DNA of 32,000 bases from an uncultured archaeon (GTDB lineage: Archaea; Iainarchaeota; Iainarchaeia; Iainarchaeales; DATDZZ01), in the NCBI GenBank assembly GCA_964373795.1, contig CAYJVY010000009.1:30001-62000 (forward strand). Direction: 5' to 3'. Positions 8,472 to 28,885 of this stretch are shown in pieces (position 1 is the first letter of the stretch; each line of letters starts with the position of its first letter). A program made the translations under genes and the position numbers. The notes beneath the pieces are model-generated. The model searched no databases. It saw only the letters and a program-made list of their open reading frames with translations, and was not told the DNA's origin.

Positions 8472-8629
8472 GTCATCGGTTTCTAAATCAAAATAAGTTC
8501 TTTGACTGTAATCCCATAATAATTCAAATTGTTCTCTTGGAATTTGAGTATCATCTAAGTCTAAAATTTTTTCGGCAAGATGCCTAAATTTCTCTGCAAG
8601 CCTTGAAAATATGTTTTATCACCTTTTAT

Positions 8630-9124: not shown

Positions 9125-9203
9125 AAAATCAATAAAAGTAATGCTTTTGCAGTTTTTATTTGTAACGCTTTCAAAAAAAGTTTTAATTATTTTCCTTTAA
9201 ATT

Positions 9204-10250: not shown

Positions 10251-10291
10251 TTATTTAATTAGTTTTAACTCGAATAAAAGCTTTTGCAAGA

Positions 10292-15071: not shown

Positions 15072-15773
15072 ATGAACAGACTAGTAATTGAAAGAACTAA
15101 GACAGGTGTTCTAGGATTTGATAAGTTACTTGGCGGAGGAATTCCAAGAGGAAACCTTGTAGTACTAGCAGGTGATCCTGGATCTGGGAAAACCATTTTC
15201 AGTATTCAGTTTTTATATGAAGGAATAATGCAATTTAAAGAACCAGGAATTTTTATTAGTTTAGAGGAATCTCCTGACACAATTATTAAAACTGCTGCTC
15301 TTTTTGGATGGGATTTAAATCCATTAATTGAAAAAGGATTGCTAAAAATTTACACAATAGAGTTATATGATTTTGATAAACTGAAAAACACTATTGAAGA
15401 CTTGATTTCTTCAATTGAAGCTAAAAGACTTGTACTAGATCCAGGAGTAATTTTTAGATTATTCTTTGAAAGAGAATTAGAGGCAAGAAAAAGAATTCTT
15501 TCACTTGGAAAACTAATTAAAAAACTGAATTGCACTACAGTTATAACAAATGAAATTGCTTTAGATCAACAGCAATCCTTGTTTGGTTTAGAAGAATACG
15601 TTGCAGATGGAGTAATTCTCTTATTTCACACTCGCTTAGGAAACAAATATGTTAGATCAATTGGAATTCTGAAAATGAGAGGCACAGACATAACTGAAAA
15701 AATTCATTCAGTTCAAATAACTAAAAACGGTATAAACATTTCAAGCGGCAGACCAATATTCGAAGAACTTTAA
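15072..15773 (+). CDS. Single-domain KaiC/RecA-superfamily ATPase (ArlH/FlaH-like)
   Basis: It has GFDKLLGGGIPRGNLVVLAGDPGSGKT (Walker A), RLVLDPG (Walker B-like) and GILKMRG. The 233 aa length matches ArlH-type proteins. An AGGTGA SD lies 4 nt upstream. Confidence 0.8.
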   Translation: MNRLVIERTKTGVLGFDKLLGGGIPRGNLVVLAGDPGSGKTIFSIQFLYEGIMQFKEPGIFISLEESPDTIIKTAALFGWDLNPLIEKGLLKIYTIELYDFDKLKNTIEDLISSIEAKRLVLDPGVIFRLFFERELEARKRILSLGKLIKKLNCTTVITNEIALDQQQSLFGLEEYVADGVILLFHTRLGNKYVRSIGILKMRGTDITEKIHSVQITKNGINISSGRPIFEEL

Positions 15774-15897: not shown

Positions 15898-16365
15898 ATG
15901 TTTAAACAAAAAGGTCAATCTGCTCTTGAGTATTTAATGACTTATGGATGGGCATTAGTAGTAATTGTTGTAGTAATTGGAGTTCTAGGTTTTTTAGGAG
16001 TATTCAATTTAGGTGGAACAATTGAATCTTGTACTGGAATGCCTTCTCAATTTCAATACTCGGCTCATAGATATAAAGCTGATGGAAACTTTATGTTAAC
16101 TTTTAATAATGGTTCAAATTATGATGTAAATGTTACTGCTTTAAGTGTTGGAGGAACATCCAAGACTCTTTCTCCAGCTGTGCAATTAGCTAAAGGAAAA
16201 GCTGGAACAGTTGGTTCTGGTGGTTATAAAACTGGGACAAGTGGAACTTCTTACAAAGTTGATGTAACCCTTACTTATGATGGATTAAAAGATGATGGAA
16301 CTATTGAACCAACTCAAGGCGCAAAAAAAGTTACAGGCGTGCAGTGTACAGGTAAATACGAGTAA
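15898..16365 (+). CDS. Archaeal type IV pilin-like protein (class III signal peptide), paralog B
   Basis: MFKQKG|QSALEYLMTYGWALVVIVVVIGVLGFLG is a class III signal peptide. Conserved Cys are at ESCTG and VQCTGKYE. It has the strongest SD in the window, which suggests a major subunit. Confidence 0.85.
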   Translation: MFKQKGQSALEYLMTYGWALVVIVVVIGVLGFLGVFNLGGTIESCTGMPSQFQYSAHRYKADGNFMLTFNNGSNYDVNVTALSVGGTSKTLSPAVQLAKGKAGTVGSGGYKTGTSGTSYKVDVTLTYDGLKDDGTIEPTQGAKKVTGVQCTGKYE

Positions 16366-16460: not shown

Positions 16461-16922
16461 ATGGGTTTTAAGTCTGAAGACGAAAAGAAACTGCAAAAAC
16501 TCACTTCTTATGCATGGGTTTTAGTATTAATTTTTATTTTACTTGCAGTAACTTTGTTTTTTACTGGATTTAAGTTAGTTAAACCAAAACCTAAATGCAT
16601 TGATTTCCCTGAATATTTAGTTTATGAAAAGCATTCTTTGAATGACAAAGGAGAGTTTTCTTTAGCTTTAACTAGTTCAAAAAACTTGACTCTGAGTTCA
16701 ATAGAACTTGATGGAGAATTGCTTGTTTTAGCTGATAAAAGCAAAAGCGTTGTTTCAGAAATAGCATTAACTAAAGACAAAAGCACCGAAATTAATGCTC
16801 TTGGATCGCCTCAAAAACAAGAAGAAAAAGAGTATTCAAAACAACTTAGATTAACTTATTTTTTTGAAGGCGAGAATAGAAAAATTGTTTCAATTGCTTC
16901 TTGCACTGGAGTAATTGAATAA
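16461..16922 (+). CDS. Pilin-paralog C with divergent N-terminus
   Basis: It is the same length (153 aa). TSYAWVLVLIFILLAV aligns with MTYGWALVVIV, and both Cys positions are conserved (PKCIDFPEYLVY, ASCTGVIE). The K-G/A|Q cleavage motif is missing. Confidence 0.6.
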   Translation: MGFKSEDEKKLQKLTSYAWVLVLIFILLAVTLFFTGFKLVKPKPKCIDFPEYLVYEKHSLNDKGEFSLALTSSKNLTLSSIELDGELLVLADKSKSVVSEIALTKDKSTEINALGSPQKQEEKEYSKQLRLTYFFEGENRKIVSIASCTGVIE

Positions 16923-16929
16923 CTCTGCC

Positions 16930-16962
16930 CTTTTCTTTTTCTTTAAAAAAGAAAAAGAAAAG
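16930..16962. terminator. Perfect 15 bp palindromic hairpin with AAA loop between convergent genes (bidirectional terminator candidate)
   Basis: CTTTTCTTTTTCTTT-AAA-AAAGAAAAAGAAAAG. Every position 16930-16944 pairs with 16962-16948. The sequence is T-rich when read on either strand. Confidence 0.55.
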
Positions 16963-17039
16963 TGTAAGTTGCCCAAAAGAAAGAGAAAGGAAAATGTAAG
17001 TTGCGCAAAAGAAAGAAAAGTGTAAATTGTCCCACAAAA
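16951..17039. repeat. Three imperfect tandem direct repeats (~26-32 nt) of consensus GAAAGAAAAGTGTAAGTTGCCCAAAA
   Basis: The cores are GTGTAAGTTGC at 16962, ATGTAAGTTGC at 16994 and GTGTAAATTGTC at 17020, each flanked by GAAAG/AAAAG runs. Confidence 0.6.
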
Positions 17040-17058: not shown

Positions 17059-18057
17059 TTAAGTGAGTAAGCCTGCGAAAAAGAATAAGAATAATTCTCT
17101 TACTACAATGAATACTGTTAGTGAAACAATTAGTATTGGAATAAAGTATTTTAATCCTGTTTTTTCTTTTCCTGAATTTATTACTCCAATTGTCATGCTT
17201 GCAAAAATGCTTCCAACGAATAACACTAAATATGCAAAGAATAAAACAAATTCTGGATCTATTCCTCCACCTGAACCTGTTACTATTGGCACTGGGCTTT
17301 TGCTTAAAGCTTCTGGATTAATTCCTTCTCCAATGCCTGCTGTTTGAGCTGTAAGAGCTTGAACAATGAAAGTACTAATTCCTAAAAGAAATGGCCCTCC
17401 AAAAGCCGAGCCAAAAAAAATCAATAAAACATACATTGAAATGTTTGATTTAATTTCTGATTGAACTGATCTTTGTTGTCTTAAATCATTTGAAAGCTGT
17501 ACAAGCAAGTCAGCTATTTGTCCTCCACTGCTAACTCCTTTTGAAATAAGCCAAACAGTTCTTTCCAAGATTTTTGACTTAATTTGGTTGGGTAATTCAA
17601 GTAAAGCTGTTTCAATTCTTTCTCCTGCTAAAATTTTTTGAGTTGCTTTTTTTAATTCTCGTTCTAATGCACCAAATTCCGGGCGAGATGCAATTAGTAA
17701 AGCTCTTTCAGTTGTTAATCCTGACTTAATATGTGACGCAATTAATTGAAGCGCGTCAGGTAAAATGTTTTCAACAAATTTTCCATTTGATTCAGCTGAA
17801 AGATCCATCCAATAATAAGGCAAGGCAAAGATTATTATACTTAAAATAATGAATGACAGTAAAAAGAATGGCAGGCTTAATTCAAATAATAAAAATAAAT
17901 TAATTGTTAAAATAAATCCTAAAATCAAGCTAAAAATAGTTAAAAAGCCTACAAATATTTCTTCATCTCCTCTAAAATCCATGAATTCAAATTCTCTTTT
18001 AAATGCGTTCAAAATATTTTTTGGCAGTATTTTTCCAATTTTTTTGTAGTAACTCAT
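17059..18057 (-). CDS. Type II secretion system F-domain platform protein (TadC/ArlJ C-half-like)
   Basis: 332 aa. N-terminal TM helices are followed by a cytoplasmic helical domain (LPDALQLIASHIKSGLTTERAL...) and C-terminal TM helices. Confidence 0.8.
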   Translation of the reverse strand: MSYYKKIGKILPKNILNAFKREFEFMDFRGDEEIFVGFLTIFSLILGFILTINLFLLFELSLPFFLLSFIILSIIIFALPYYWMDLSAESNGKFVENILPDALQLIASHIKSGLTTERALLIASRPEFGALERELKKATQKILAGERIETALLELPNQIKSKILERTVWLISKGVSSGGQIADLLVQLSNDLRQQRSVQSEIKSNISMYVLLIFFGSAFGGPFLLGISTFIVQALTAQTAGIGEGINPEALSKSPVPIVTGSGGGIDPEFVLFFAYLVLFVGSIFASMTIGVINSGKEKTGLKYFIPILIVSLTVFIVVRELFLFFFAGLLT

Positions 18058-18068
18058 TTAACTCACTT

Positions 18069-18959
18069 TTAATCTGAAATTAAATTTGGTCTAGCAGATT
18101 TCATCATTCCAAGGTACATGAATTGAGAAATTATAATGAATGCTAATAAAATCCAAAAAACTATTTCACCTATTTTTACTTGAGGAAAAGAACTTAACAC
18201 AATTAAAAAAGTTATTCCAAGAGAAGGAATTATTACTCCTAACATCATGTAAACCAATGAAAGTAACTTCATTTTAGATCCGTATTCATTTATTTGAACT
18301 GTTTGTTCTTTAACCATTGAATCAACTATTTCAGCTAAAACAACAGTTATTTCTGCTCCAGATCTTAGTCCTGTGACTATTTGATCAATGCTTCTTCTAA
18401 AAAAATATGAAGGCGTTTCTTCACCCATTTCTTTTAAAGCAGTGTCTTCTGGTTCTCCGCTATTGATTTTGTTTATAAGTGTTTTGAATTCATTTGTTAA
18501 TTGTCCATAATCTCCTTCTGCTACAACACTTAGTGAATCAAATAATGTTACGCCTGATTTTAATTGAACAAGCATTGTTCTTAATGCAAACACTAAACTT
18601 TTTTCAATTTCTCTAACCTTTTTTTTAACTAAAATTGTTGGATAAAAAATTACTTGAATGAAAATTAGTAATGCAAAAAAAAACCCGCCTGCAAATGAAA
18701 GAACAATCATTTGTTCAGGAAAATATTTTGAAGAAATTAATAAAATAAATGCTGCTGCAAAAGAAAAGTAAAAAATTGTTAAAATTAATGTAATTGCACA
18801 GTATTCTTTTACTTCAAATTTTAGTTTTGCTTGCTTTAATTTTAGTTCTAGATCTGGAAAAATTGAAGTAATTAAAAAACTTAATCCGTAAAATTTTGGC
18901 GCAATTTTTTTAAGAAGTTTAATTGGAATTGGATTGAATGGAATTAATTCTGGATTCAT
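18069..18959 (-). CDS. Type II secretion system F-domain platform protein (TadB/ArlJ N-half-like)
   Basis: 296 aa with the same architecture (LVFALRTMLVQLKSGVTLFDSL...). It lies 11 nt upstream of the second T2SF gene. Confidence 0.8.
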   Translation of the reverse strand: MNPELIPFNPIPIKLLKKIAPKFYGLSFLITSIFPDLELKLKQAKLKFEVKEYCAITLILTIFYFSFAAAFILLISSKYFPEQMIVLSFAGGFFFALLIFIQVIFYPTILVKKKVREIEKSLVFALRTMLVQLKSGVTLFDSLSVVAEGDYGQLTNEFKTLINKINSGEPEDTALKEMGEETPSYFFRRSIDQIVTGLRSGAEITVVLAEIVDSMVKEQTVQINEYGSKMKLLSLVYMMLGVIIPSLGITFLIVLSSFPQVKIGEIVFWILLAFIIISQFMYLGMMKSARPNLISD

Positions 18960-18965
18960 TTTGAT

Positions 18966-20489
18966 TCACTTTTTTGTTTTGGCTTCTTCTTTTTTTGGCT
19001 TTAAATCTTTTTCAACCATTTTAATTACTTCATTTTCATCCATGTAGTATTGAGCCATTATTTTTCCAACGTCTTGAATTGAGTGAATGTCTTTTTTTAC
19101 AAGCCATTCTAGAATTGCTTGCTTTGTTTTTAATTCTTTTTTCATTTCATCTAATGTTAGCCCTGTATGCAATGATAATTCGTCAAATAATCTAATGCTT
19201 TGAGTGTGTTGAGTTATAGAGTCAATTGAAGGCTTCCACCTGTATAATACATTTGCTTTAACTACTTCTTGTCCATCTCCTCTTCTTTCTGGAATGAATT
19301 CAGCTAATTGAAGAATTCTTCTTGCACCAATTCTTCTGTTTCTAAACATTACTACATTTAAGTGAACTGCTTCAAGCATGGCTGCAGGAATATTTACTGG
19401 AGGACTAGTTAACCTACTAATTGTTTCATCTGCAGTGTTTGCATGCACGCTTGTATAAACTGAGTGACCTGTATGCATTGCTTCAAACATTACTTCTGCT
19501 TCTCTTTGTCTTCTAATTTCTCCTACAATTATCCTGTCAGGCCTCATTCTAAGAGAGTTAACTAATAAGTCAAGCATTGAAACTTCTCCTTTTCCTTCAG
19601 GGTTTGGTTCTCGAGTAGTTAATGGCACCCAATGAAGATATTCAGGCAAGGTTAATTCTCTTGTGTCTTCAATTGTTAAAACTCTGTGATTTGGTTGAAT
19701 AAAAGGCAAGCAAATTCCCATCATTGTTGTTTTCCCTGAAGCCGTTCCCCCACTAAAAATAATGTTTAATTCAAATTGCATTGCAAGCCAAATTAAACTC
19801 ATTATTTCAGAGTTAACAGTGTTGTTTCTAATTAAATCTGTTACAGTCCAAGGATCTCTTCTAAATCTTCTAATAGTAATAGTGTTTCCTTTAGTTGAAA
19901 TAGGAAATAAAGTTGCATTTGCTCTGTCTCCTGTAACTAAATGCGCATCAAGTAATGGATTTAAAATTGTTATTTGTTTTCCTACCCTTCTAGCAATAAT
20001 GCTTGAATAGTTTTGAATCTCTGATTCAGGTGAAATGAATACATTTGTTTTAAGCCAAGAATATTTTTTATGATAAACCCATACAGGTTCTTTTGAAGCA
20101 TTTACAACTATTTCTTCCAAGTCTTTATCAGCTAAAAGGAATTCAATTTGTCCTAATCCAAGCATTTCGTTTAACAAAATAGCTATTAATGAATTAGTTT
20201 TTTCATTTGACATGTTTGGCAAGTTTTTTTGCAACACATTTAATGCTTTTTCCTTGAATTGTTCTCGTATTTTTGAAATAAATTTTGGGTCAATAATTTT
20301 TTCTGAATGAACTGGGATTTCTAAAATAATTGATTGCTTTAAATTGTCAAGCAATGCTTTTGTTCCAGGGCCAAAATCAGGGGTACTTAAAACATAGCTT
20401 CTAACGAATTCATTTTTTTCTTCAACAATGTTTACATCTAATTTAAGGTTTTCAAACCCTATTTCATAGGTTTCAATTACTTTAACCAT
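18966..20489 (-). CDS. Type II/IV secretion-family assembly ATPase (FlaI/ArlI, PilB, CpaF-like)
   Basis: It has Walker A SGGTASGKTT, Walker B/Asp box RMRPDRIIVGEIRRQREA and His box HTGHSVYTSVHAN. Confidence 0.92.
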   Translation of the reverse strand: MVKVIETYEIGFENLKLDVNIVEEKNEFVRSYVLSTPDFGPGTKALLDNLKQSIILEIPVHSEKIIDPKFISKIREQFKEKALNVLQKNLPNMSNEKTNSLIAILLNEMLGLGQIEFLLADKDLEEIVVNASKEPVWVYHKKYSWLKTNVFISPESEIQNYSSIIARRVGKQITILNPLLDAHLVTGDRANATLFPISTKGNTITIRRFRRDPWTVTDLIRNNTVNSEIMSLIWLAMQFELNIIFSGGTASGKTTMMGICLPFIQPNHRVLTIEDTRELTLPEYLHWVPLTTREPNPEGKGEVSMLDLLVNSLRMRPDRIIVGEIRRQREAEVMFEAMHTGHSVYTSVHANTADETISRLTSPPVNIPAAMLEAVHLNVVMFRNRRIGARRILQLAEFIPERRGDGQEVVKANVLYRWKPSIDSITQHTQSIRLFDELSLHTGLTLDEMKKELKTKQAILEWLVKKDIHSIQDVGKIMAQYYMDENEVIKMVEKDLKPKKEEAKTKK

Positions 20490-20503
20490 TTTTTCAACCT
20501 CGT

Positions 20504-21940
20504 TTATTTTTTTTCATCCTCTATATTTACTTCAAGCGCCAATAAAATTGGTTCGCCTATGGGAGGATAATTTATTTTAATTAAATTATTTTCCTCTAAA
20601 ACTTCTGCAATAACTGTAATTCTTTCACTTGGCAAGTTAAGTTCTTTTACTGCATCGCTTAATTTGATTTTTCCATTTTTTTTAACCAACAATAACACCT
20701 TGTCAAAATCTGTTGAAATTGTTTCTTTTTCTAAATTTTTTTCTACTCCTTTAAATTTTTCTTCTTTTTTAATTGTTCCAATGACTGATGAATCCAGTGA
20801 AACAACTAATGGTTCATGGATTTTTTCTCTTTTAGTTTCAGGTTTTGTGTCTTCAACTACTTTTCCTAAGCTAAGTTTTCCTTCTGGTTTAAAATCAGTT
20901 AACCTTTTTCCACTTAATGGCTTGGTTTTTGTTTCCTTTAAAGCCTTTGGCTTGTCTTCTTCATATTGCATTTCTTTTATTTCTTTTTCAATTTCTTCTT
21001 GGGTTTTTACTTCCGCTTTTTTTACTGCCTGTTTTTCTACTTGAATTGGTTGTCTTTTAATTTCTTCTTTTACTGCTGCAGCTATTTCTTTAGCCATTAC
21101 TGAAACTTTTTTACTTGAAGTTCTTCTTTTTTGTGACTCTATCTCTAATGGCGCGTTAATTACTTCTTTTTTTATTTCTTCTTCACTTGGAATTACTTGT
21201 TTTATTCCTGTTTTAAATTCTTTTTTCCCTAGTTCCAGTAACATATTTTTTTGTCTGTATTGAATTAATTGTTGTCTTAATTCGGTTGTTTCGGAATCTT
21301 TTAGTTTTATTTTTTCTTTTAACTCATGGGTTTGGTTTTTGAGTTTTTCTAATTCGTTTTTTGTTTTTTCGTAATCTCTTTTTAACTTCATATAAGATTT
21401 GTTAATACTTGCAACATTTGGATTTGCTTTAAACTCTTTTTCAGCTTTAACTGTTTTAGGTAGCAATTCTTTTTTTCTAAAATTCAGTAAATTAATTTTT
21501 TGCTTGTATTCAAGCATTTTATTATTATAAGCAGTTTGTTTTCCATGGCTTCTTAAATACTCTACTTCTAATCCTAAAATTAATGCTTTAGTTTCTTTTA
21601 TCTCTTTTTCATAGTCTTCAATTGATTTATTTTTCTTTTGAATTTTGTTATAAATTTGAATTGGTTTTCCTTTTGGTTTAATTTTCATTCCATGACTTAA
21701 TGCTTTTTTTTCTAGTTTTGAAATCTTTTTTTTAATATTTTTTTCAGCTTCTTTGGAAGTTGATTTCCTTTTCTTTTCATTTTTAATATTTTTTTCAATT
21801 TCTTTTTCTTCTTCTTTTTTTTCTTGTTTTTCTTGAATTTGATTGGTTTCATTTGAAATTGTTGTTTCTTTTTTTAATCCAATTAAGCTTAGAAGTTGTT
21901 CTATAAAACCATTTTTAGGTTTTTCATTTGTTTCAGGCAT
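20504..21940 (-). CDS. Lys/Glu-rich coiled-coil protein with C-terminal winged-helix-like domain, unknown function
   Basis: 478 aa. The N-terminus has an amphipathic GFIEQLLSLIGL, followed by about 380 aa of K/E low-complexity sequence. The C-terminus DKVLLLVKKNGKIKLSDAVKELNLPSERITVIAEVLEENNLIKINYP looks like a wHTH. Confidence 0.6.
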   Translation of the reverse strand: MPETNEKPKNGFIEQLLSLIGLKKETTISNETNQIQEKQEKKEEEKEIEKNIKNEKKRKSTSKEAEKNIKKKISKLEKKALSHGMKIKPKGKPIQIYNKIQKKNKSIEDYEKEIKETKALILGLEVEYLRSHGKQTAYNNKMLEYKQKINLLNFRKKELLPKTVKAEKEFKANPNVASINKSYMKLKRDYEKTKNELEKLKNQTHELKEKIKLKDSETTELRQQLIQYRQKNMLLELGKKEFKTGIKQVIPSEEEIKKEVINAPLEIESQKRRTSSKKVSVMAKEIAAAVKEEIKRQPIQVEKQAVKKAEVKTQEEIEKEIKEMQYEEDKPKALKETKTKPLSGKRLTDFKPEGKLSLGKVVEDTKPETKREKIHEPLVVSLDSSVIGTIKKEEKFKGVEKNLEKETISTDFDKVLLLVKKNGKIKLSDAVKELNLPSERITVIAEVLEENNLIKINYPPIGEPILLALEVNIEDEKK

Positions 21941-21993
21941 ATTCTCACTGTATTTAATAAGTTTTTGTGGTATTTATTTCTTTTCAATTAAAT

Positions 21994-22872
21994 CTATGAT
22001 TTTTCTGTTCTTAATTCATGGTCTCTTACTTTAATGAATGTATTTGGTAGTCTAATATGTGGAGCAGCATTAGCATCATCTCCAAAATCTATTCCTGACA
22101 TTAAGTCAACTCCAACTGAATTGTTGTTTGTAATAGTTAACTTGCTGTTGTCAAAAACTATTTCAATATCGTTTCCTGATTCCCCTGAAGTATTAATTGT
22201 TATTGTAAACTTTTTTGAAGCATCAATGTTTGTAAAGGAAACATTTGTTTCAGGAATTTTGTTGCTATTTCTAACAATTAATTCAATGTTTAATGCTTTT
22301 AAGCAATTATTACAAGTTGGCACGGAAGCCGGATTTGTTTGAATTGATTCATAGGATTGATTTTGCAGAGTTAAATCTAAAAAATATGAATTAAAATCTA
22401 GTCTGCTTGGAGAATAAATTATTGAATTGTTTATTCTTTTTCCTTGAGTGAAAACATTTGGATGGCTTACATTAAAATCGTATGGCTCCACTATTAAATC
22501 GAGTGAATCATTTAAGTTGTAGGATAAGTTTACATCTAAATTGTCTTTATATCCTTCAAGAAATAAATTGTAATTATCTAAATATATTTTAAGGTTAGTA
22601 AATTTGTTGTCTTCTTTTTTCTTTGAAAGAGTTTCAGTTAAAGCAATTGTTGTAGGAGTTTTATTTATCTTTAATGCAGAGACATTTTCTAAAATGTCTT
22701 GGAAATTATCTTCAATGTTTTCATATTTCATTGAAACATTGTCTATTCCTATTATGTCTTTTTTGAATGCGTCTGCTTGTTTAACGTTTTCTTTAACTAT
22801 TTGACTTAACTGTAATACAACTAACGCTAGAATTAAAACTGAAAACGTTAACAATAACCCTTTACTATTCAT
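21994..22872 (-). CDS. Class III signal-peptide (pilin-like) protein, ~292 aa
   Basis: The probable start is MNSKG|LLLTFSVLILALVVL at 22872, where ATGAATAG overlaps the upstream stop. The track start 22899 adds 9 codons. The protein is N-x-S/T rich. Confidence 0.6.
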   Translation of the reverse strand: MNSKGLLLTFSVLILALVVLQLSQIVKENVKQADAFKKDIIGIDNVSMKYENIEDNFQDILENVSALKINKTPTTIALTETLSKKKEDNKFTNLKIYLDNYNLFLEGYKDNLDVNLSYNLNDSLDLIVEPYDFNVSHPNVFTQGKRINNSIIYSPSRLDFNSYFLDLTLQNQSYESIQTNPASVPTCNNCLKALNIELIVRNSNKIPETNVSFTNIDASKKFTITINTSGESGNDIEIVFDNSKLTITNNNSVGVDLMSGIDFGDDANAAPHIRLPNTFIKVRDHELRTEKS

Positions 22873-23302
22873 TTTTAATCCACGCCCAATATTCTGCATT
22901 ATAGTACTTGCTTATTTCATTGTCTTTAAATGCTAAAAATAATCTTCTTCCTTTTACTACGTCTTTATCAGTTAAATTAATTGAAGTAAAACCTAGATTT
23001 AATTCATTTTTTTTCTTGAATTCGTTTCCTGAAAACTCGAATTCTTCTATTTTCATTTTCCATTGAAATTGAATTGGCATTACTGCATTAATTTCTTTTT
23101 CAATTTCAGTTCCATCAAGTTTTTGAAGAACTCCTTTTGAATCCAAAATGCTTAGCGAATCATTCATTATTCTTTTTAATGAAACAGTGTTAAATGAATC
23201 TGTTGTTGATCCAAACAAGGAATGAGTTAAAACCGCAAAAATTGTTATAGTTAGAAAAACTGCCATGAATGCATCTAAACTAAACACATATCCTTTTTTC
23301 AT
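22865..23302 (-). CDS. Class III signal-peptide (minor pilin-like) protein, 145 aa
   Basis: MKKG|YVFSLDAFMAVFLTITIFAVL. Confidence 0.6.
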   Translation of the reverse strand: MKKGYVFSLDAFMAVFLTITIFAVLTHSLFGSTTDSFNTVSLKRIMNDSLSILDSKGVLQKLDGTEIEKEINAVMPIQFQWKMKIEEFEFSGNEFKKKNELNLGFTSINLTDKDVVKGRRLFLAFKDNEISKYYNAEYWAWIKNE

Positions 23303-23306
23303 TTCA

Positions 23307-23807
23307 TCAACTCTTGAATAATGTTAAATTTAGTTTTGCTGGTTTTCCATTTAATTCAATAATTCTTTGAGTTGAAATAGAGTATTTAGGGTTAGTAATT
23401 GTTACTCCTTTTTCAAAAACTGTTTGAAAGTCTTGCTCGATTTTAAGATAGTAATCGTATTGAGGAATTAGCATTTTTTCTTTTGATTTATTGTAATCCA
23501 TTGAAGCAAGTTTGTTTAACTTGCTTTGATTTAAAACTCTTTTTTCATTGACTAATCCAATTGAATTAATTTGATTTAAATCCAGGTTTTGCCAATTTGA
23601 TGGATTGCCTGTTGTTAAAGTTAAAATGTTTGAAGAATTAAATAAATTTGACTCCATTTTAATTAATGTTTTTTCCTCTGAAACTGCATTAATATGATTA
23701 TTTAATGAAATCAGTAAATAAAAAATTAATACAAGAAATATAACTAAAGCAAATAATAAGTCATACATTATTGCCTGGCCTTTTTCTTTGCTTGACTTGT
23801 TAAGCAT
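23307..23807 (-). CDS. Class III signal-peptide (minor pilin-like) protein, 166 aa
   Basis: SKEKG|QAIMYDLLFALVIFLVLIFYLL. It overlaps the upstream gene by 8 nt. Confidence 0.6.
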   Translation of the reverse strand: MLNKSSKEKGQAIMYDLLFALVIFLVLIFYLLISLNNHINAVSEEKTLIKMESNLFNSSNILTLTTGNPSNWQNLDLNQINSIGLVNEKRVLNQSKLNKLASMDYNKSKEKMLIPQYDYYLKIEQDFQTVFEKGVTITNPKYSISTQRIIELNGKPAKLNLTLFKS

Positions 23808-24873
23808 TTGATAACACTATCCTTCCATCAATATTTTCTACTGTTATTTTTCCAGTAAACGTTAATGGTTCTACTACAATTCCTGAATAATTGCAAGTAT
23901 TAGAAGTGACATTTGTTAAACTAACAATGCTGTATTGTTTAATGAATTCAATTGCTACATCTGTAAAGCTTTCCCCTGATCTTGCTCCTTGAAAAGTAGT
24001 ATCAAAGTCAGAGAAATAAGAAACTTTTCCAAGGCCATACTTCCATTGAGCAATTGCATGCCTTGTTGGCACAAGAGTATTGCAATTAGAGGAAGTGCAA
24101 AAAGTTGCAATTACATCTGCTTGATTTGGAGGAATAATTGCTCCATTATCTGCTACTCTTATTTTATCTTCAATTCTTAAATTAAAATCTGGGTTTGGTT
24201 GAACAACTTTTGCATAATAATATGTTGCATCTTTAATGTAAGTTGCTCCTCCAAAAATAGGGAATAAAGTGTTTACATCGTTTTTATTAAAAATGTGTTC
24301 TGATACAATTAACTTTCCGCCATTAAATGTAAAGTTTTCCATTGTTGCAAGATAATTTTTATTCATGTGAGCGTCTTCAAAAATTACTACATCATAATTA
24401 TTAATTGCATTCATTAATTGTTGAATGTCTCCAATTGCTCCATTAGTGTTATTCATGCAAAGCTGTTGTCCGCCAGCAGTTCTATACAAGTAAATGTTTA
24501 AATCAGTTCGAGTTTTCAAAGACCTGTATAAAAAGGCATCTTCTTCTGGGCCACAATTAATGTAATAAGCAATGTCTCCAAATCTATTAACGTCAATGTT
24601 TTGTGATTCAGTTATTTCAATTTGTCCTTTTGAATCAATTCTTACAGCATAATTATCTATTGAACCATTCCATTTTGTTCCAGGTCCTGAAGCATAAACA
24701 TTTGAAATAACATCAGATAATTCTTGGCAAACATTTTCTTTTTTCCATTCACTGTCAATTCCTTGAAGATTAGCTCTGTGTTGGTTTGCAATTAATCCAA
24801 TTGAAAGAAAAACAAGCATTGTTATTCCAACTGCAATACTCATTTCCAAAGATACTTGAGCTTTTAAATTCAT
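23800..24873 (-). CDS. Class III signal-peptide protein with large globular domain, ~357 aa
   Basis: The probable start is MNLKA|QVSLEMSIAVGITMLVFL at 24873, 4 nt after the upstream stop. The track start is 24897. Confidence 0.65.
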   Translation of the reverse strand: MNLKAQVSLEMSIAVGITMLVFLSIGLIANQHRANLQGIDSEWKKENVCQELSDVISNVYASGPGTKWNGSIDNYAVRIDSKGQIEITESQNIDVNRFGDIAYYINCGPEEDAFLYRSLKTRTDLNIYLYRTAGGQQLCMNNTNGAIGDIQQLMNAINNYDVVIFEDAHMNKNYLATMENFTFNGGKLIVSEHIFNKNDVNTLFPIFGGATYIKDATYYYAKVVQPNPDFNLRIEDKIRVADNGAIIPPNQADVIATFCTSSNCNTLVPTRHAIAQWKYGLGKVSYFSDFDTTFQGARSGESFTDVAIEFIKQYSIVSLTNVTSNTCNYSGIVVEPLTFTGKITVENIDGRIVLSNA

Positions 24874-24877
24874 TTTC

Positions 24878-26923
24878 TCACGAAGTATAAGTAACAACTA
24901 GTCTTGGTTTGAAGCAATCAATTCCTAGAGTTCCTCCTCCACATCCTGAATACCCTGTATCCCATTGCATTAAATTAGTTCCACTTGTTGGTCCTGTGAT
25001 TTTAAATGAAACCTTGTTATTTCCATTATTATGTCCTTCAAGTAAAAGCATTTGAGTTGAATTAAATTGTAATTCACTCCAAGTGTCTTTAACTAAACTT
25101 GTCCTACTCAAAATTCCAATAGTTGATTCATTTACAGCATTATTTAATTCACTATAAGTTGGATGATTTCTAGTTCCATCAAACTTGCTATCCTCTAATG
25201 AATTCAGCATGTAAACATTCCATTGCTTTGAACTACTAGTAGCAAGAGAAGTGTTTTGAACAAACAATCTTATTGCAGCACTTTGAATTCTTGCATTGAC
25301 TGGAATTGCAGTTAAATCAAATTGAATTCCTCCAATAAATCTTGAAATACCGTAATACCCTGAATAAATTTCTGCTCCTCCAAACCAATTAATGCTTGGC
25401 TGAGCTGATTGAACATATCCTTCAAACCATTGTTCTGGTTCAATTATTACTTGAACTTGATTTCCTGATTGACTGCTTTCACTTCCAGTTACAATCCATA
25501 ACGGAGAAGTATAAACGCTTCCATCGGAGAACTTGAATTGAGCTTGAAATCTTTCCCCATTATTATTCATGTCTTGATCAAATTCAAGTTTATTATTGCT
25601 TGAAATAAATTGTCCTACACTTAAATTAAAATCACTGAAAACAGCATTAGATGAAAGCCAGCTTCCAGGAGAAACAGTGCCACTCCATTTAATGTTATTG
25701 GCAATTCTAACTCTATTAAGTTTTGAATTATCTGAATCGTTCCACCACATTACATTCATATCAGTAATATTTATTGAAGTACAACCAGTATTTTCAATTT
25801 TCCATGTTTCAACAATTTTATTTGCAGTACTGAAAACAGTGTTATTCCAATCCATTTTAAAATAATTACTTTGATTTCCGCCTGCAACTAAAAATTGCTT
25901 GCTTGCAGTTACTATAGAAAATTTTTTTCCATCTACTTTAATGCCCCAATTCCCGTTTTTGCCTAGACAAGAAATTGTATAACTTCCTTCAACTCTTCCA
26001 TTACTTGAAGACTGATTTGAAAGGTTTTGTTGAACGACTAAATTTGGATCAGAGACTTTAATGTTTAAATCAGTTAAATCGATTGGTTTGTTTGATTGGT
26101 CTTTTAATGCAATTGCGTAATACACTGTTGAATTAGGAGTAAAACTTGTAGAAGGAATTGAATAACTTGAATCTGAATACAAGTTTACATCAATTGAAGT
26201 TAAAACTTGTGGAATTAAAATTGAAACCTTTACTACGTCTTTAAAGTTTTGAGTTGAATTTACTTGAATTTCTCCATTCCAGGTTTTTGAAGGCTCGTTT
26301 AACGGAACAGTAAAAGTTGCATTAATTGAATCGTTTTGATCTGAATTTAATGAATTAATATTTTTATTAAAATTAGTGTTAGCGCTATTCAAGTCTCCTG
26401 TAAGAGTTCGACTTAAATTAGTTAAAGTAACATCTGTTCCATTCAAGAATTTAATTTCTTGAATTGCAGTATTTTGTCCACTAATTGGAGGAATAACTTT
26501 GTTTACTTTGTTTGGAGTTAGCATTAATCCTTCTCCAATTCTAACAAATCCATTGTCAAGCATTTGAATTAATACTTTGTGTGGTCCCGGGTTTAATGGA
26601 AGGTCTCCGACTAAAGGAGCTTTCGTTGGAATGCTTATTTCACTTGGATTTTCTTTAGAGCCAACCTTGAATCCAATAATTTTTCCTTGAATTACTTTTT
26701 CTCTCACATTTGAAGGCAAATCAATTTCAATGAAAACCTTGCTTCCAGGGCCAAGAGAATAAACTTGGTCAACTCCTTTAGCTAGACTGGTAACAGAACT
26801 ATTTATTTTATTTATTGCAATAGTTTCCTGCGAAGTAGTGTTTGAAATAAGAAACACAACTCCAACTGCAGTTAAAGCAAATCCAATTAAAAGCAAGGTT
26901 TCAACAGATATTTGAGCCTTCAA
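24878..26923 (-). CDS. Giant class III signal-peptide protein (681 aa), candidate pilus-associated adhesin
   Basis: MKA|QISVETLLLIGFALTAVGVVFL. It is the first gene of the operon and carries at least 15 N-x-S/T sequons by eye. Confidence 0.7.
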   Translation of the reverse strand: MKAQISVETLLLIGFALTAVGVVFLISNTTSQETIAINKINSSVTSLAKGVDQVYSLGPGSKVFIEIDLPSNVREKVIQGKIIGFKVGSKENPSEISIPTKAPLVGDLPLNPGPHKVLIQMLDNGFVRIGEGLMLTPNKVNKVIPPISGQNTAIQEIKFLNGTDVTLTNLSRTLTGDLNSANTNFNKNINSLNSDQNDSINATFTVPLNEPSKTWNGEIQVNSTQNFKDVVKVSILIPQVLTSIDVNLYSDSSYSIPSTSFTPNSTVYYAIALKDQSNKPIDLTDLNIKVSDPNLVVQQNLSNQSSSNGRVEGSYTISCLGKNGNWGIKVDGKKFSIVTASKQFLVAGGNQSNYFKMDWNNTVFSTANKIVETWKIENTGCTSINITDMNVMWWNDSDNSKLNRVRIANNIKWSGTVSPGSWLSSNAVFSDFNLSVGQFISSNNKLEFDQDMNNNGERFQAQFKFSDGSVYTSPLWIVTGSESSQSGNQVQVIIEPEQWFEGYVQSAQPSINWFGGAEIYSGYYGISRFIGGIQFDLTAIPVNARIQSAAIRLFVQNTSLATSSSKQWNVYMLNSLEDSKFDGTRNHPTYSELNNAVNESTIGILSRTSLVKDTWSELQFNSTQMLLLEGHNNGNNKVSFKITGPTSGTNLMQWDTGYSGCGGGTLGIDCFKPRLVVTYTS

Positions 26924-27052: not shown

Positions 27053-28885
27053 ATGAAAAACAAATTAATTTACTGTTTAATTATTTTTCTTGCAGTATTG
27101 TTGACTGGATGCATTCAACCAACTCCTAAAGGAAAAACTTGTGAAGAGCTTTCAGGATTTATTTGCAGTGAAAAAGAATTCTGTAGTGAAGGTTTTCTTG
27201 AAGCAAGTGATTCAACTAATTGTTGTGTAAGCCAATGCCAACCAAAAAAAGAAATCTCTTTAGTTGAAAAAGCCTTTAAAGGCCAGGGAAGCTTTAAATG
27301 TGAATTAACAGTTGAAGGAGTTAAAGCAATAGTATTACTTAAAGACTTGAAATTTAATTTAGATTTCAATGAATCAAAAATTTTATCTGATTATAATTTT
27401 TATTACGAGTTTTCAAAAGACTTAAATGCATGGCTTAAAATAGATAAAAAAGAACAAGAAGCTGAAAACGATTTATGGGAAAAAATTCAAAGCACTGCTT
27501 TATCTAATCCTGAAAAAGTTTCCTGCATTGAACAATCTTTGGAAGATAACTTATTTTTTGTTCCAGAAAAAGACTTGTTTCAACTTCCAATTAATGGAGG
27601 TAATGGAGGCGAAACTCCAGGCGATTCAGATTCAAATAAACAAGTTAATCCAATTAAAGCCTGTGATGAATTAGAGAATCCATTAAAAAGAGAGGTTTGC
27701 ATTAAAGATTTAGCTCTTCAATCTCTTCAAACAGGTGTTTGTAGAAAGCTTTCAATTTTTTCAAAAGATTCTTGCATTAATGAAATTGCAGTGAAAACAA
27801 ATAAATTAGATTTATGTAATGAAATTGAAAATGAATTAAGAAGAAATGAATGCATTAAAATAATTAGCATTAATTTAAATGAAATTACTGCTTGTAATGC
27901 AATTACTGATGAAAACCGAACAATAGATTGTTATTATAGAATTGGATTGCAGAAAAAGATTTTAGATTCTTGTCTTAAAATTTCTCCAACTTCTTATGGA
28001 ATTTTTAAAAGAGACGAATGCATTTTTTCAATTGCAACAGAGCAAAAAAATGTTGATTTATGTAATTTAATTTCTTTAAGTTATGTAAGCTCTGAATTCA
28101 CTAGAGATAAATGTTTTTTTTCATTAGTTGAAAAAATTGAAGACATTAGTTTTTGCAATAAAATAATTGACTTAAATAGAAGAAATGAGTGTCTTAAATT
28201 AATTGGTGTAACTCAATTCAGATTAGATGCCTGCCAGGCAATTGATGTTAATTCCTTGCAAGGAGAATGCATTAAATCAATTGCATTAAACGATGCAAAC
28301 CACTTAGTTTGCCTTGAAATTCCTCAATCAGAGTTGCCTTTAAGACAAGAATGTTTTAGTGAAATAGCAGTTAAAACTCAGTCAATTGATTTATGTTATA
28401 AAATTTATAACACTGACTTGAAAGGGGATTGCTTGAAAAACCTTGCATTAGTTCAAAAACAAGTAGTTGGATGTGAAAAAATTACTTTTAATGATAAGAA
28501 AAAATTTGAATGCTATTATGAATTTGCTTTACAAGAAAACAACCCTTCTTATTGTGAAGATACAGGAATTGTTGGATTAAAAAATTTGTCAGAAGAATGT
28601 TATTACACTTTAGCAACTAAAAATCAAAACATTTCTTTATGTGAAAAAATTTTAGTTGATAAAACTTATTATAATTGTTTTTTAGATATTGCAGTTGAAT
28701 TAAAATCTCACAAAATTTGTCCTTTAATGAAAAAAATTTACTTATCTAATATAACAAAGTATCCCATTTCACAGTTATGCATTAAAGATTTTGCTGCAAA
28801 AACCTCTGACAAAGTTGTATGTGATGAAATAATCAGTCAAGAATTACGCGAAGCCTGCTTGAAGCTAGACTTAAATTTCACTTGA
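27053..28885 (+). CDS. Secreted/lipoprotein-like Cys-rich repeat protein
   Basis: The signal peptide carries a lipobox (LAVLLTGC). It is followed by a Cys-rich head and then about 13 repeats of a two-Cys ~30 aa unit, e.g. RRNECIKIISI and KRDECIFSIAT. Confidence 0.7.
   Translation: MKNKLIYCLIIFLAVLLTGCIQPTPKGKTCEELSGFICSEKEFCSEGFLEASDSTNCCVSQCQPKKEISLVEKAFKGQGSFKCELTVEGVKAIVLLKDLKFNLDFNESKILSDYNFYYEFSKDLNAWLKIDKKEQEAENDLWEKIQSTALSNPEKVSCIEQSLEDNLFFVPEKDLFQLPINGGNGGETPGDSDSNKQVNPIKACDELENPLKREVCIKDLALQSLQTGVCRKLSIFSKDSCINEIAVKTNKLDLCNEIENELRRNECIKIISINLNEITACNAITDENRTIDCYYRIGLQKKILDSCLKISPTSYGIFKRDECIFSIATEQKNVDLCNLISLSYVSSEFTRDKCFFSLVEKIEDISFCNKIIDLNRRNECLKLIGVTQFRLDACQAIDVNSLQGECIKSIALNDANHLVCLEIPQSELPLRQECFSEIAVKTQSIDLCYKIYNTDLKGDCLKNLALVQKQVVGCEKITFNDKKKFECYYEFALQENNPSYCEDTGIVGLKNLSEECYYTLATKNQNISLCEKILVDKTYYNCFLDIAVELKSHKICPLMKKIYLSNITKYPISQLCIKDFAAKTSDKVVCDEIISQELREACLKLDLNFT

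Follow-up and report, generated by a model that had tools for sequence, protein, structure and literature searches.

A probable type IV pilus assembly operon of DPANN archaea, with a conserved putative minor-pilin cassette, in an uncultured member of the Iainarchaeota

Organization of the locus

Does a dense cluster of genes in the genome of an uncultured archaeon encode a type IV filament system and, if so, of which kind and for what purpose? The window analyzed here is the whole stretch of 32,000 nucleotides that contains the cluster. Between positions 17059 and 26923, the ORF list gives nine tightly packed co-directional genes on the minus strand (g1-g9) and not ten, as counted in a first-pass annotation. 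The spacers from g1 to g9 measure +4, -8, +4, -8, +53, +14, +6 and +11 nt, in agreement with the earlier range of -8 to +53 nt, and the five N-termini then quoted for g1-g5 all match the translations. The genes and their neighbors are as follows (lengths of g1-g9 from the ORF list; a slash marks the predicted cleavage site here and below).

g1, 24878-26923, minus strand: class III-signal protein, 681 aa, TTG start
g2, 23800-24873, minus strand: class III-signal protein, 357 aa counted from ATG
g3, 23307-23807, minus strand: class III-signal protein, 166 aa
g4, 22865-23302, minus strand: class III-signal protein, 145 aa
g5, 21994-22872, minus strand: class III-signal protein, 292 aa
g6, 20504-21940, minus strand: K/E-rich protein, 478 aa
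g7, 18966-20489, minus strand: predicted assembly ATPase, 507 aa
g8, 18069-18959, minus strand: predicted platform protein, 296 aa
g9, 17059-18057, minus strand: predicted platform protein, 332 aa
p153b, 16461-16922, plus strand: degenerate p155-pilin paralogue, 153 aa, without a K-G/A cleavage motif
p155, 15898-16365, plus strand: probable major (shaft) pilin, 155 aa, leader MFKQKG/QSALEYLMTYGWA
KaiC-like ATPase, 15072-15773, plus strand: single-domain protein, 233 aa, Pfam KaiC 1e-58
p153a, 14230-14691, minus strand: second canonical pilin paralogue, 153 aa, leader MNEKA/QSALEYLMTYGWA

At 80 loci of DPANN genomes, we find the same gene order again: g1-g5, winged-helix (wHTH) protein, ATPase, split platform, pilin(s), KaiC-like ATPase. 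This synteny spans Iain-, Micr-, Woese-, Nano-, Pace-, Aenigm- and Nanohaloarchaeota. The g7 ATPase finds its best matches in Ca. Iainarchaeum MAGs (68% identity), which supports the first-pass suggestion of a DPANN-like organism.

The assembly ATPase, the split platform and a winged-helix protein

The g7 product is predicted to be an assembly ATPase of the PilB/GspE/FlaI/CpaF family. It matches Pfam T2SSE (2e-34, above cut-off), with a weak Pfam match to PilB3_C at its C-terminus, and its translation contains a Walker A motif (GGTASGKTT), a Walker B motif (RPDRIIVGE) and a His box (MHTGHSVYTSVHA). Searches against the PDB yield GspE of A. fulgidus (2OAP, 3e-66, full length), CpaF (4e-50) and FlaI (1e-48).

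The genes g8 and g9 each encode one T2SSF domain above the Pfam cut-off (1.3e-16 and 1.4e-15, respectively). The former covers positions 5-248 of 555 in the ArlJ model, the latter positions 264-478 of 484 in the UpsF model, and the two share 28% identity (E 2e-13); their sequences identify them as putative paralogous N-half and C-half platform proteins. g8 lies downstream of the ATPase gene in 72 of the 80 loci, and the g9 family is found at 68. Split platforms have been reported for Epd/System 1, many clade 2 loci and DPANN (PMC4858521; bioRxiv 10.64898/2026.04.22.720090; PMC9563170) and are not unusual among archaea. The Tad- or Epd-like platform proposed at first pass stands as a two-gene split with two T2SSF domains, but not as a distinctive trait, the arrangement being documented in archaea, DPANN included.

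Directly upstream of the ATPase gene, in 70 of 80 loci, resides the g6 family. The g6 protein (36% K+E, TM segment absent) is predicted to be cytoplasmic and carries a conserved winged-helix domain near its C-terminus (residues ~390-465); conservation is confined to the C-terminal ~80 aa. The family profile matches eS25 (7.5e-5) and the wHTH domains of LrpA and IclR in the PDB, and relatives match Pfam HTH_24 above cut-off. The domain occurs in 461 clusters among 1.84 billion representatives, and is placed C-terminally among the matches listed.

Five conserved families of class III-signal proteins

We screened for leaders of at most 10 residues ending in [KR][GA], combined with a single N-terminal hydrophobic segment. 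Only seven out of 33 plausible ORFs of the window have this structure, i.e. g1-g5, p155 and p153a; in each of g1-g5, a short basic leader ending in K-G or K-A precedes one hydrophobic helix. Of the Pfam families that had been named as checks at first pass, T2SSE and T2SSF score above their cut-offs, whereas Class_IIIsignal reaches only 12.9 bits on g1 and stays below. The five putative pilin families keep their own cleavage-site signatures in orthologues from ~80 DPANN genomes; because the K-G/A context is conserved in these orthologues, the objection that g1-g5 carry ordinary Sec or TM anchors fails.

The g1 protein (MKA/QISVE, single TM) consists of a conserved putative pilin module (residues 1-130), an MG2 Ig-like domain (Pfam 6.9e-9, above cut-off) and a DNRLRE-like domain (NCBIfam 7e-6, below cut-off); it also matches the MG domains of complement C3 weakly. 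Its orthologues mostly have 130-140 aa and align to residues 1-130 only. A Q+1/E+5 motif is present in 46 of 48 family members, with K/R at -2 in 40 and G/A/S at -1 in 44 of these 46. The g2 protein (MNLKA/QVSLE, single TM) is evidently a paralogue of g1, as jackhmmer merges the two families. Short g2 orthologues of 121-146 aa cover residues 1-75 in the alignment and, only weakly, residues ~310-357; g2 seems to have acquired an additional domain of ~230 aa by insertion. The Pfam hits of g2, DUF2194 (7.6e-6) and GH42M (1.4e-3), are weak and below cut-off.

The g3 leader, MLNKSSKEKG/QAIMYD, has Q at +1 and D at +6; the motif [KR][GAS]/Q....D is retained in 40 of 49 members of a family present at 51 of 80 loci. 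In the g4 family (leader MKKG/YVFSLD), 19 of 24 members show [KR][GA]/h..[ST].D. By sequence, g4 would be a minimal member of a minor-pilin family whose relatives are often giant and VWA-bearing: giant relatives with the identical type of N-terminus carry VWA, LVIVD or LamG domains, which supports the earlier suggestion of adhesin modules on pilins. The g5 protein (MNSKG/LLLTF) has no acidic residue at +5 or +6. K[GA]/hydrophobic is found in 11 of 11 first-round relatives, and jackhmmer detects the family at 37 loci. We consider g5 the largest conserved candidate minor pilin of the cassette; at 292 aa, it does not fit the earlier description of three small subunits following two large ones. 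The density of N-glycosylation sequons is elevated in g1, g3 and g5 (3.8 per 100 aa in g5). AF2 models of g5 and g1 have a pLDDT of about 33 each, and family profile searches with the g1 N-terminal module, g4 and g5 found no homologs of solved structure.

Most orthologues of g1-g4 are bare proteins of 120-170 aa without a cargo domain. What sets this lineage apart is the enlargement of g1 and g2 by extra domains; in relatives, it is instead g4 that has gained modules of the VWA, propeller or lectin type. Taken together, g1-g5 are probably best read as a minor-pilin cassette, and since this cassette is conserved across DPANN, the subunit set is not the atypical one it had been taken for.

Flanking pilins, KaiC-like ATPase and prepilin processing

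Outside positions 17059-26923, p155 and p153a (49% identity) are probably the shaft pilins. Theirs is the most conserved N-terminus; that of p155 is nearly invariant across DPANN (Q7, A9, E11, L13, T15, Y16 and W18 invariant). The p155 family profile matches pilus subunits of archaea and bacteria with solved structures: 8Q30 (2.8e-4) over helix and globular domain, 8FK7 (7e-3) and PilA 8TUM (0.026). At 44 of the 80 loci, one to three copies of the family adjoin the genes for the platform. Jackhmmer recovers the p155 family also from p153b, which has no [KR][GA] site ahead of its hydrophobic segment. The probable assignment of major and minor pilins is based on conservation, size and copy number.

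The KaiC-like ATPase scores best with the KaiC_arch models of NCBIfam, and a KaiC homolog flanks 24 of the 40 loci with sufficient flanking sequence. An association of KaiC with archaeal type IV pili (T4P) has been described (PMC4858521); the protein probably regulates the pilus motor.

As the first-pass annotation had noted, a prepilin peptidase is missing from the window: Peptidase_A24 has no match among the window ORFs scanned. Only one of the 80 related loci has such a gene within 10 kb. Q+1 combined with E+5 is the EppA-substrate signature of Epd pilins (KGQV, KGQI, RAQI; PMC4371748). Q at +1 is common to g1, g2, g3, p155 and p153a, but absent in g4 and g5; hence, one EppA-like enzyme may not process all seven proteins.

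Comparison with known filament systems

The Epd pilus of Methanococcus maripaludis (TFF clade 1/System 1) resembles the locus in its single ATPase with two PilC/TadC paralogues (EpdL; EpdJ, EpdK) and at least five minor pilins (PMC4371748, PMC4858521, bioRxiv 10.64898/2026.04.22.720090), in large adhesin-like class III-signal proteins, and in the Q+1/E+5 signals after K/R-G/A (here KA/QISVE, KA/QVSLE and KG/QSALE). According to the 2026 census, System 1 occurs in DPANN (bioRxiv 10.64898/2026.04.22.720090), whereas clade 1 of Makarova comprises only methanococci, methanobacteria and thermococci. However, the Epd major pilin has ~70 aa and no globular domain, in contrast to the 155 aa and Aap-type-like, beta-rich domain of p155; the Epd cluster possesses its own EppA; its accessory genes encode DUF2341 adhesins, MinD and FtsZ instead of a wHTH protein and KaiC; and two of the seven pilins of the locus lack Q at +1.

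Clade 2 T4P (Haloferax PilB3/PilC3 and PilA; A. fulgidus GspE) include 2OAP, the solved ATPase closest to g7 over its full length, and share the weak PilB3_C match. Two tadC-like genes, together with linked KaiC ATPases, are a feature of many clade 2 loci; the clade includes a few Nanoarchaea, and one of its minor pilins, the variable all-beta arCOG02911 (250-550 aa), is reminiscent of g5 (PMC4858521). On the other hand, the signals of Haloferax PilA are of the D/R-A/VS type (PMC4371748), and the System 2 platform is a single gene (bioRxiv 10.64898/2026.04.22.720090).

The bacterial Tad/Flp system (TadA, TadB, TadC, TadE, TadF, TadG), for which an origin among Epd-like systems of archaea has been deduced (PMC6711533), likewise has a platform of two single-T2SSF proteins, a CpaF/TadA-like ATPase and pseudopilins, and its VWA-bearing TadG has a counterpart in the g4-family relatives. 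Unlike Tad/Flp, the locus lacks a secretin, TadZ, RcpC, TadD and a short Flp-type pilin, and leaders (3-10 residues) and K-G/A cleavage context are archaeal.

The bacterial cassettes FimU-PilVWX-PilY1 and GspH-I-J-K resemble g1-g5 in being fixed sets of accessory pilins, four to five in number, whose genes lie together; their supposed task is to prime assembly, and they are believed to finish at the tip. GspK is the largest and last member of GspH-K and lacks the conserved acidic residue, as does g5. An adhesin with VWA and propeller is tied to the cassette in both, i.e. PilY1 in bacteria (PMC7541494) and the giant g4-family proteins in DPANN; the modules are fused to pilins in the DPANN locus, but belong to a separate non-pilin protein in bacteria. 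This likeness is an analogy only, with no sequence or structural homology detected.

Within DPANN, Tad-like clusters were reported in Nanohaloarchaeota and Undinarchaeota, and two of our loci come from the Nanohaloarchaeota MAGs of that work; some of the TadA/TadB/TadC clusters described there have two kaiC genes and no peptidase (PMC9563170). A published DPANN "dark-matter" T4P island (Fig. 2A) shows FlaI, TadC, TadB and unannotated proteins predicted to be pilins (PMC6393860). These reports annotate no pilins or generic "diverse pilins". Split platforms, sets of five or more minor pilins and an association with KaiC are known from archaeal T4P including DPANN (PMC4858521, PMC6393860, PMC9563170, bioRxiv 10.64898/2026.04.22.720090), and such clusters are already catalogued. 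In the searchable literature, we found no description of the five putative pilin families and their signatures, nor of the p155 family or the wHTH protein.

Alternative interpretations

The cluster could instead encode a short dynamic pseudopilus for Com-like DNA uptake or T2SS-like protein export rather than a long adhesive fiber. Five accessory pilins and one major pilin would then act as a piston, or as a tip that binds DNA, and nourish a DPANN cell poor in nutrients. One major and about five accessory pilins, ATPase and platform recall ComG and T2SS operons, DNA import via pili has been proposed for DPANN (PMC9563170), and the TFF ancestor is thought to have been capable of DNA uptake (PMC6711533). 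We nonetheless consider this unlikely: no ComEA/ComEC-like channel, nuclease or secreted-substrate gene linked to the locus was found in the window, the variable modules of the relatives (VWA, lectin, propeller, Ig-like) are of adhesin type, and PilT-type retraction ATPases are absent from archaea (PMC4858521).

It is more improbable still that g1-g5 are bindosome-like surface proteins which use the machinery or the peptidase for anchoring or display, so that only p155 and p153a polymerize. The large C-terminal domains of g1, g2 and g5 and the lack of an acidic residue near the g5 cleavage site would suit such a role, and class III-signal (SPIII) binding proteins that functionalize TFF machineries have been proposed to be widespread (bioRxiv 10.64898/2026.04.22.720090). 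Yet structural minor pilins fit better than displayed enzymes or binders, because most g1-g4 orthologues are small and cargo-free; moreover, the genes strictly keep their order and occur together with the ATPase gene, and domains of substrate-binding proteins and ABC transporters are absent (Pfam, NCBIfam).

A divergent archaellum, i.e. a swimming motor, is effectively refuted by the missing archaellum-specific components: FlaI is the best NCBIfam match of g7 and the nearby KaiC-like protein is ArlH-like in size, but the scores are 268 bits (cut-off 550) and 53.5 bits (cut-off 215), neither an archaellin domain nor ArlC/D/E/F/G/X was found (Pfam, NCBIfam), the platform is split as opposed to the single ArlJ, and g7 is nearer to A. 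fulgidus GspE than to FlaI.

A model of the pilus and its role

The locus is likely an operon for the assembly of an archaeal type IV pilus other than an archaellum, of a type found across DPANN. The first-pass proposal of an archaeal type IV filament operon holds, with a PilB/FlaI-type ATPase, a two-gene platform and five class III-signal proteins present. According to this model, seven prepilins would enter the membrane, where an A24 prepilin peptidase, with its gene in another part of the genome, would cleave them behind K-G/A. A hexamer of g7 would dock onto the g8-g9 heterodimer and drive pilins from the membrane into a helical fiber. By analogy with bacterial GspH-K, FimU-PilVWX-PilY1 and the Epd minor pilins, g1-g5 may form a priming and tip complex, and p155 and p153a the shaft. 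The extra domains of g1 (MG2 Ig-like, DNRLRE-like) and the g2 insert would be displayed on the fiber as binding modules; in relatives, the g4-family protein may fill this role with its VWA, propeller or lectin domains. The g6 winged-helix protein and the KaiC-like ATPase probably have a regulatory function or assist as accessory factors in the cytoplasm. Such a pilus would likely serve for adhesion, be it to surfaces or to other cells. The source archaeon may be an episymbiont, and attachment to a host by this pilus would be plausible.

Gene organization and surroundings of the locus

The locus is in all likelihood a type IV pilus operon of the DPANN type with a conserved minor-pilin cassette, in which the modules of g1 and g2 are enlarged. 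According to the ORF list, it consists of nine co-directional minus-strand genes (26923 down to 17059), and not of ten as proposed in the first-pass annotation, whose gene spacings hold: from g1 to g9 they amount to +4, -8, +4, -8, +53, +14, +6 and +11 nt. Two small pilin genes and a diverged copy lie outside this run.

Predicted genes of the locus (coordinates, strand, product; g1 to g9 from the ORF list)
g1: 24878-26923, minus, class III-signal protein, 681 aa, TTG start
g2: 23800-24873, minus, class III-signal protein, 357 aa counted from ATG
g3: 23307-23807, minus, class III-signal protein, 166 aa
g4: 22865-23302, minus, class III-signal protein, 145 aa
g5: 21994-22872, minus, class III-signal protein, 292 aa
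g6: 20504-21940, minus, K/E-rich winged-helix protein, 478 aa
g7: 18966-20489, minus, assembly ATPase, 507 aa
g8: 18069-18959, minus, platform N half, 296 aa
g9: 17059-18057, minus, platform C half, 332 aa
p155: 15898-16365, plus, small pilin with class III-type leader
p153a: 14230-14691, minus, small pilin with class III-type leader
p153b: 16461-16922, diverged p155 paralog

GC content is even along the window (25-34%), and the operon is flanked by archaeal housekeeping genes (ribosomal protein L15e, class V FBPase, MetRS and aIF5A). On these grounds we regard the cluster as a native part of the chromosome and rule out a mobile element or foreign island. Rfam predicts no RNA family in the window, nor does the window contain tRNAs. 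The convergent gap between the stop codons of p153b and g9 (16930-17034) holds a perfect 15-nt hairpin (CTTTTCTTTTTCTTT/AAAGAAAAAGAAAAG), after which come three tandem repeats of about 32 nt containing GTGTAAGTTGCCCAAAAGAAAG; the element has two matches in the window at up to three mismatches, where none is expected by chance. The region could serve as a terminator in both directions or as an array of protein-binding sites.

Several neighboring genes deserve mention in their own right. Divergent from g1, a 610-aa protein (27053-28885) has 40 cysteines arranged repetitively, a lipobox-like signal (LLTGC) and no significant family match. At its C-terminus, the MetRS (12097-14217) has a B3_4 domain (residues 563-672; Pfam, 2e-17), whose usual home is the PheRS beta subunit. 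At 29788-30464, a PIN-domain toxin gene (PIN_3, 4e-24) is overlapped by an upstream gene for a MazE/AbrB-type antitoxin. Finally, a minus-strand run (4701-10756) encodes a 651-aa coiled-coil protein, an archaeal MinD (NCBIfam, 248 bits, above cut-off), a 110-aa ORF, and DUF2226, HEAT-repeat and NYN-domain proteins. A FleN/MinD ATPase, usually encoded apart, is expected to work with clade 1 and clade 2 pili (Makarova et al. 2016), and this run could be that module.

Assembly ATPase and split platform

The assignment of g7 to the secretion ATPases of the PilB/GspE/FlaI/TadA family is borne out by Pfam (T2SSE, 2e-34; 119 bits against a cut-off of 24.9), and the Walker A, Walker B and His boxes are all intact in its translation. 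In a PDB search, the nearest solved relative is Archaeoglobus fulgidus GspE (2OAP, 3e-66), which aligns over the full length, followed by Caulobacter CpaF (4e-50) and Sulfolobus FlaI (1e-48). The position of A. fulgidus GspE above CpaF, a ranking of matches and no phylogeny, hints at clade 2 of the archaeal pili. With the TadA-family model g7 reaches 184 bits (cut-off 373), and it matches PilB3_C weakly.

The platform genes g8 and g9 each possess a single T2SSF domain above the Pfam cut-off (1.3e-16 and 1.4e-15), with four and six hydrophobic segments, respectively. Among the NCBIfam models, g8 aligns with the N half of ArlJ and g9 with the C half of UpsF; moreover, the two genes are paralogs (28% identity, E 2e-13). 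The half matches and this paralogy establish that the platform is truly split into two genes, as had been noticed at first reading.

N-terminal signatures of the predicted pilins

All five leaders originally quoted for g1 to g5 are correct. We scanned 33 plausible ORFs of the window for a leader of at most 10 residues, a [KR][GA] site and one N-terminal hydrophobic segment; only seven qualify, i.e. g1 to g5, p155 and p153a. A FlaFind-like regular expression accepts six of these seven and fails on g4, which has Y at +1. The Class_IIIsignal and Pilin_N models match below threshold only, and Pfam and NCBIfam recognize no family for g3, g4, g5 or the small pilins. Each family keeps a signature of its own in the related loci, so that the cleavage context is conserved, contrary to what would be expected of ordinary anchors. 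Members lacking the motif are mostly ORFs shortened by the ATG-only start rule.

N-terminal signatures of the pilin families in related loci (a slash marks the predicted cleavage site)
g1 family: [KR][GAS]/Q...EY, 46 of 48 members
g2 family: [KR][GAS]/Q.S.E, 21 of 21 members
g3 family: [KR][GAS]/Q....D, 40 of 49 members
g4 family: [KR][GA]/h..[ST].D, 19 of 24 members
g5 family: K[GA]/hydrophobic, without acidic residue, 11 of 11 members
p155 family: [KR][GA]/Q[SA]A[LM]E[YF]LMTYGWA, 40 of 43 members

Five of the seven predicted pilins have Q at +1, to which g1, g2, p155 and p153a add E+5 and g3 adds D+6; in g4 (Y) and g5 (L) the +1 residue is hydrophobic, a property kept in their orthologs. Q+1 together with E+5 marks the EppA substrates of Methanococcus maripaludis, where Q+1 is indispensable for EppA and not accepted by FlaK (PMC4371748). 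The predicted sites of g4 and g5 would be served either by a DPANN enzyme of broad specificity or by two enzymes, or else g4 and g5 stay uncleaved.

The window ORFs scanned yield no A24 match, in agreement with the earlier remark that no prepilin peptidase is visible, and in 79 of the 80 related loci a peptidase is likewise absent within about 10 kb of the cluster. The only exception, from the Nanohaloarchaeota MAG QJJ-7, adjoins the pilus cluster (L068:8281-9255, minus strand; Peptidase_A24 1.7e-9, Arc_PepC 4.6e-7).

A cassette conserved among DPANN archaea

With the ATPase as query we retrieved 80 related loci from GTDB genomes (51-68% identity). The best matches belong to Ca. Iainarchaeum; the others come from Micrarchaeota, Woesearchaeota, Nanoarchaeota, Pacearchaeota, Aenigmarchaeota, Nanohaloarchaeota and Altiarchaeota. 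The common gene order is g1/g2-type, g3, g4, g5, g6-type, ATPase, platform N half and platform C half, often followed, on either strand, by one to three p155-type pilins and one or two KaiC-like ATPases. An iterative search finds the g6 family in 70 of the 80 loci. Among the 40 loci with enough flanking DNA, g6 is present in 38, both platform halves in 37, a g1/g2-type gene in 35, g3 and g4 in 34 each, KaiC in 24 and g5 in 23, the last count being limited by sensitivity. Because the cassette recurs across loci, the subunit set is a conserved one, and what first appeared atypical is no oddity of the window genome.

In three loci, L069 and L072 (Altiarchaeota) and L046, the ATPase belongs to the same clade (51-54% identity) and a g6-type winged-helix gene is present, with giant g4-/g5-like class III-signal proteins (616-1059 aa) upstream. 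No split platform genes follow the ATPase within the stretch fetched; in L046, an ORF of 554 aa with 11 transmembrane segments takes their place.

Accessory proteins

The K/E-rich character of g6 was described correctly (36% K+E; no transmembrane segment), and its conservation is confined to the last 80 residues or so. The profile of this C-terminal domain matches winged-helix proteins (eS25, 7.5e-5; LrpA, 2e-4; IclR; TFE), and relatives of g6 score above the Pfam cut-off for HTH_24. An exhaustive search of 1.84 billion representatives recovers the domain in 461 clusters. Among the matches listed it is C-terminal, preceded by an N-terminal region that ranges from almost nothing to about 1000 aa; in some loci this part is a transmembrane segment or has a CBS-like look. 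g6 may act in transcription, as a factor, or in the cytoplasm, as a partner of the assembly ATPase. The neighboring 233-aa ATPase is a single-domain KaiC homolog (Pfam, 1e-58), and KaiC ATPases are known to associate with archaeal type IV pilus loci (PMC4858521).

Putative minor pilins and adhesin-type modules

The g1 and g2 proteins of most relatives measure only 120-140 aa and lack further domains. Alignment of the window's g1 with these relatives is limited to residues 1-130. For g2 the aligned parts are residues 1-75 and, at a weak level, about 310-357, a pattern suggestive of an inserted domain. Outside its aligned part, g1 has an MG2 Ig-like domain (Pfam, 6.9e-9, above the cut-off), a region with weak likeness to the MG domains of complement C3, as well as a DNRLRE-like domain below cut-off; the putative insert of g2 matches DUF2194 and the GH42 trimerization domain weakly, both below cut-off. 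In other lineages it is the g4 family that is giant (760-1633 aa), with the same hhFSLD N-terminus and with VWA domains, LVIVD propeller repeats or a LamG lectin domain; these proteins recall bacterial TadG and PilY1.

Giant g4-family pilins in related loci
L010:3993-7166
L015:1811-6253
L022:1774-6675
L002:3795-6077

Judged from these domain predictions, the cassette member that bears the adhesin-type modules varies with the lineage. On the analogy of bacterial priming complexes (PMC7541494), this variable placement lends support to the tip-adhesin complex suggested in the first-pass annotation. N-glycosylation sequons are more frequent in g5, g3 and g1 (3.8, 3.0 and 2.6 per 100 aa) than in cytoplasmic ORFs (at most 1.6), an enrichment that would fit surface exposure.

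Profile searches of the PDB with the N-module of g1, with g4 and with g5 return nothing significant, and a PDB search with g2 alone gives no match. Word-indexed searches for homologs returned three proteins for g1 and only the query for g5, to which a 22-sequence g5 profile added one. Because so few sequences were returned, AlphaFold2 was run on shallow alignments; the models of g5 (two rows, mean pLDDT 32.8) and g1 (three rows, 32.6) were discarded.

Candidate major pilins

No other family has an N-terminus as conserved as that of p155 and p153a, in which seven residues of QxAxEyLmTYgW are invariant; this motif had no match in our literature search. Pilins of the p155 type are small and often present in several tandem copies. 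Against the PDB, the family profile finds 8Q30 (2.8e-4), 8FK7 (7e-3), the bacterial PilA 8TUM (0.026) and an archaellin (0.15), and its alignments to solved type IV filament subunits span both the helix and the globular domain. On the basis of conservation, size and copy number, p155 and p153a are probably the major pilins that form the shaft, and g1 to g5 the minor ones. In p153b the K-G/A cleavage motif is lost and the hydrophobic segment kept (TSYAWVLVLIFILLAV); it could serve as an anchor that is not cleaved, or be a copy in decay.

Relationship to known filament systems

Of the hallmarks of type IV filaments and archaeal type IV pili, the locus shows a secretion ATPase, a T2SSF platform and seven proteins with class III-type leaders of predicted cleavage; for another hallmark, an A24-family peptidase in the genome, the window ORFs scanned give no match. 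Clade 1 (Epd) is defined by split platforms and at least five minor pilins (Makarova, PMC4858521), and the Epd/Tad clade is marked by platform fission and short pilins (PMC6711533). The locus is Epd-like in its split platform and in its five predicted minor pilins, and in part in its pilin signals, as Q+1 with E+5 is seen in four of the seven proteins and g3 shares the Q+1. In contrast to Epd, the window has no dedicated EppA in the pilin cluster, and the Epd major pilin of about 70 aa lacks a globular domain, whereas our candidates measure 153-155 aa and have one according to the 8Q30 alignment. Features that recall clade 2 are the best ATPase match, the weak PilB3_C match and KaiC; "many" clade 2 loci likewise have a pair of tadC-like genes, and KaiC ATPases are linked to them (PMC4858521). 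The bacterial Tad system differs in that no Flp-type short pilin, TadZ, RcpA, TadD or RcpC occurs among the window ORFs scanned. An archaellum is ruled out: g7 scores 268 bits with the NCBIfam FlaI equivalog (cut-off 550) and therefore is not an archaellum motor, the 233-aa KaiC-like ATPase reaches 53.5 bits of the 215 that ArlH demands and is thereby rejected as ArlH, and the platform is split. Pfam and NCBIfam detect no archaellin or Arl accessory family (ArlF/G, ArlC/D/E or ArlX) among the window ORFs scanned.

Split platforms are already documented in archaea, DPANN included. A 2026 census assigns System 1, with its two platform genes, to methanogens and DPANN and also notes some DPANN 4A loci with two platform proteins (bioRxiv 10.64898/2026.04.22.720090). 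A DPANN island with FlaI, TadC, TadB and unannotated predicted pilins was figured in 2019 (PMC6393860), and the Nanohaloarchaeota MAGs behind L063 and L068 were reported to hold Tad-like clusters with "no pilins annotated", some of which have two kaiC genes and lack a peptidase (PMC9563170). The kind of locus is therefore known, and its split platform, contrary to the initial impression, is not atypical. The first-pass annotation thus proves right in outline; it overstated the gene count and the degree of atypicality, and it overlooked the candidate major pilins, which lie beyond the operon it delimited. The roles in tip adhesion and host attachment are held with less confidence than the pilus machine itself.

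None of the literature searched describes the five pilin families, the p155 family or the winged-helix partner. We consider it possible, though rather doubtful, that the g1-g5 cassette, g6 and the p155-type pilin represent an undescribed DPANN-wide hybrid pilus subtype, whose tip complex is a host-recognition device with a binding module that moves between subunits by lineage. Such a pilus may be hybrid in combining Epd-like signals and a split platform with a globular major pilin of the Aap/PilA type, and in lacking a peptidase in cis; its binding module may reside on g1/g2 here, and as VWA, propeller or lectin on g4 elsewhere.

Implications for DPANN archaea

The general picture of archaeal type IV pilus construction is unchanged by this locus. 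DPANN archaea, tiny and mostly uncultured, often depend on other cells. Little is known about their means of attachment, and according to published genome surveys that covered their pilus clusters, the pilins could not be annotated. The window and its 80 relatives provide concrete sequence signatures for six pilin families, one of them probably major and five minor, and for the conserved winged-helix protein that accompanies the ATPase, and they show swapping of adhesin-type domains among the predicted minor pilins. These signatures are of use for annotation and for the choice of targets in the few cultivated DPANN systems. If the hybrid subtype were real, the host or substrate specificity of uncultured DPANN archaea would be predictable by reading this locus.
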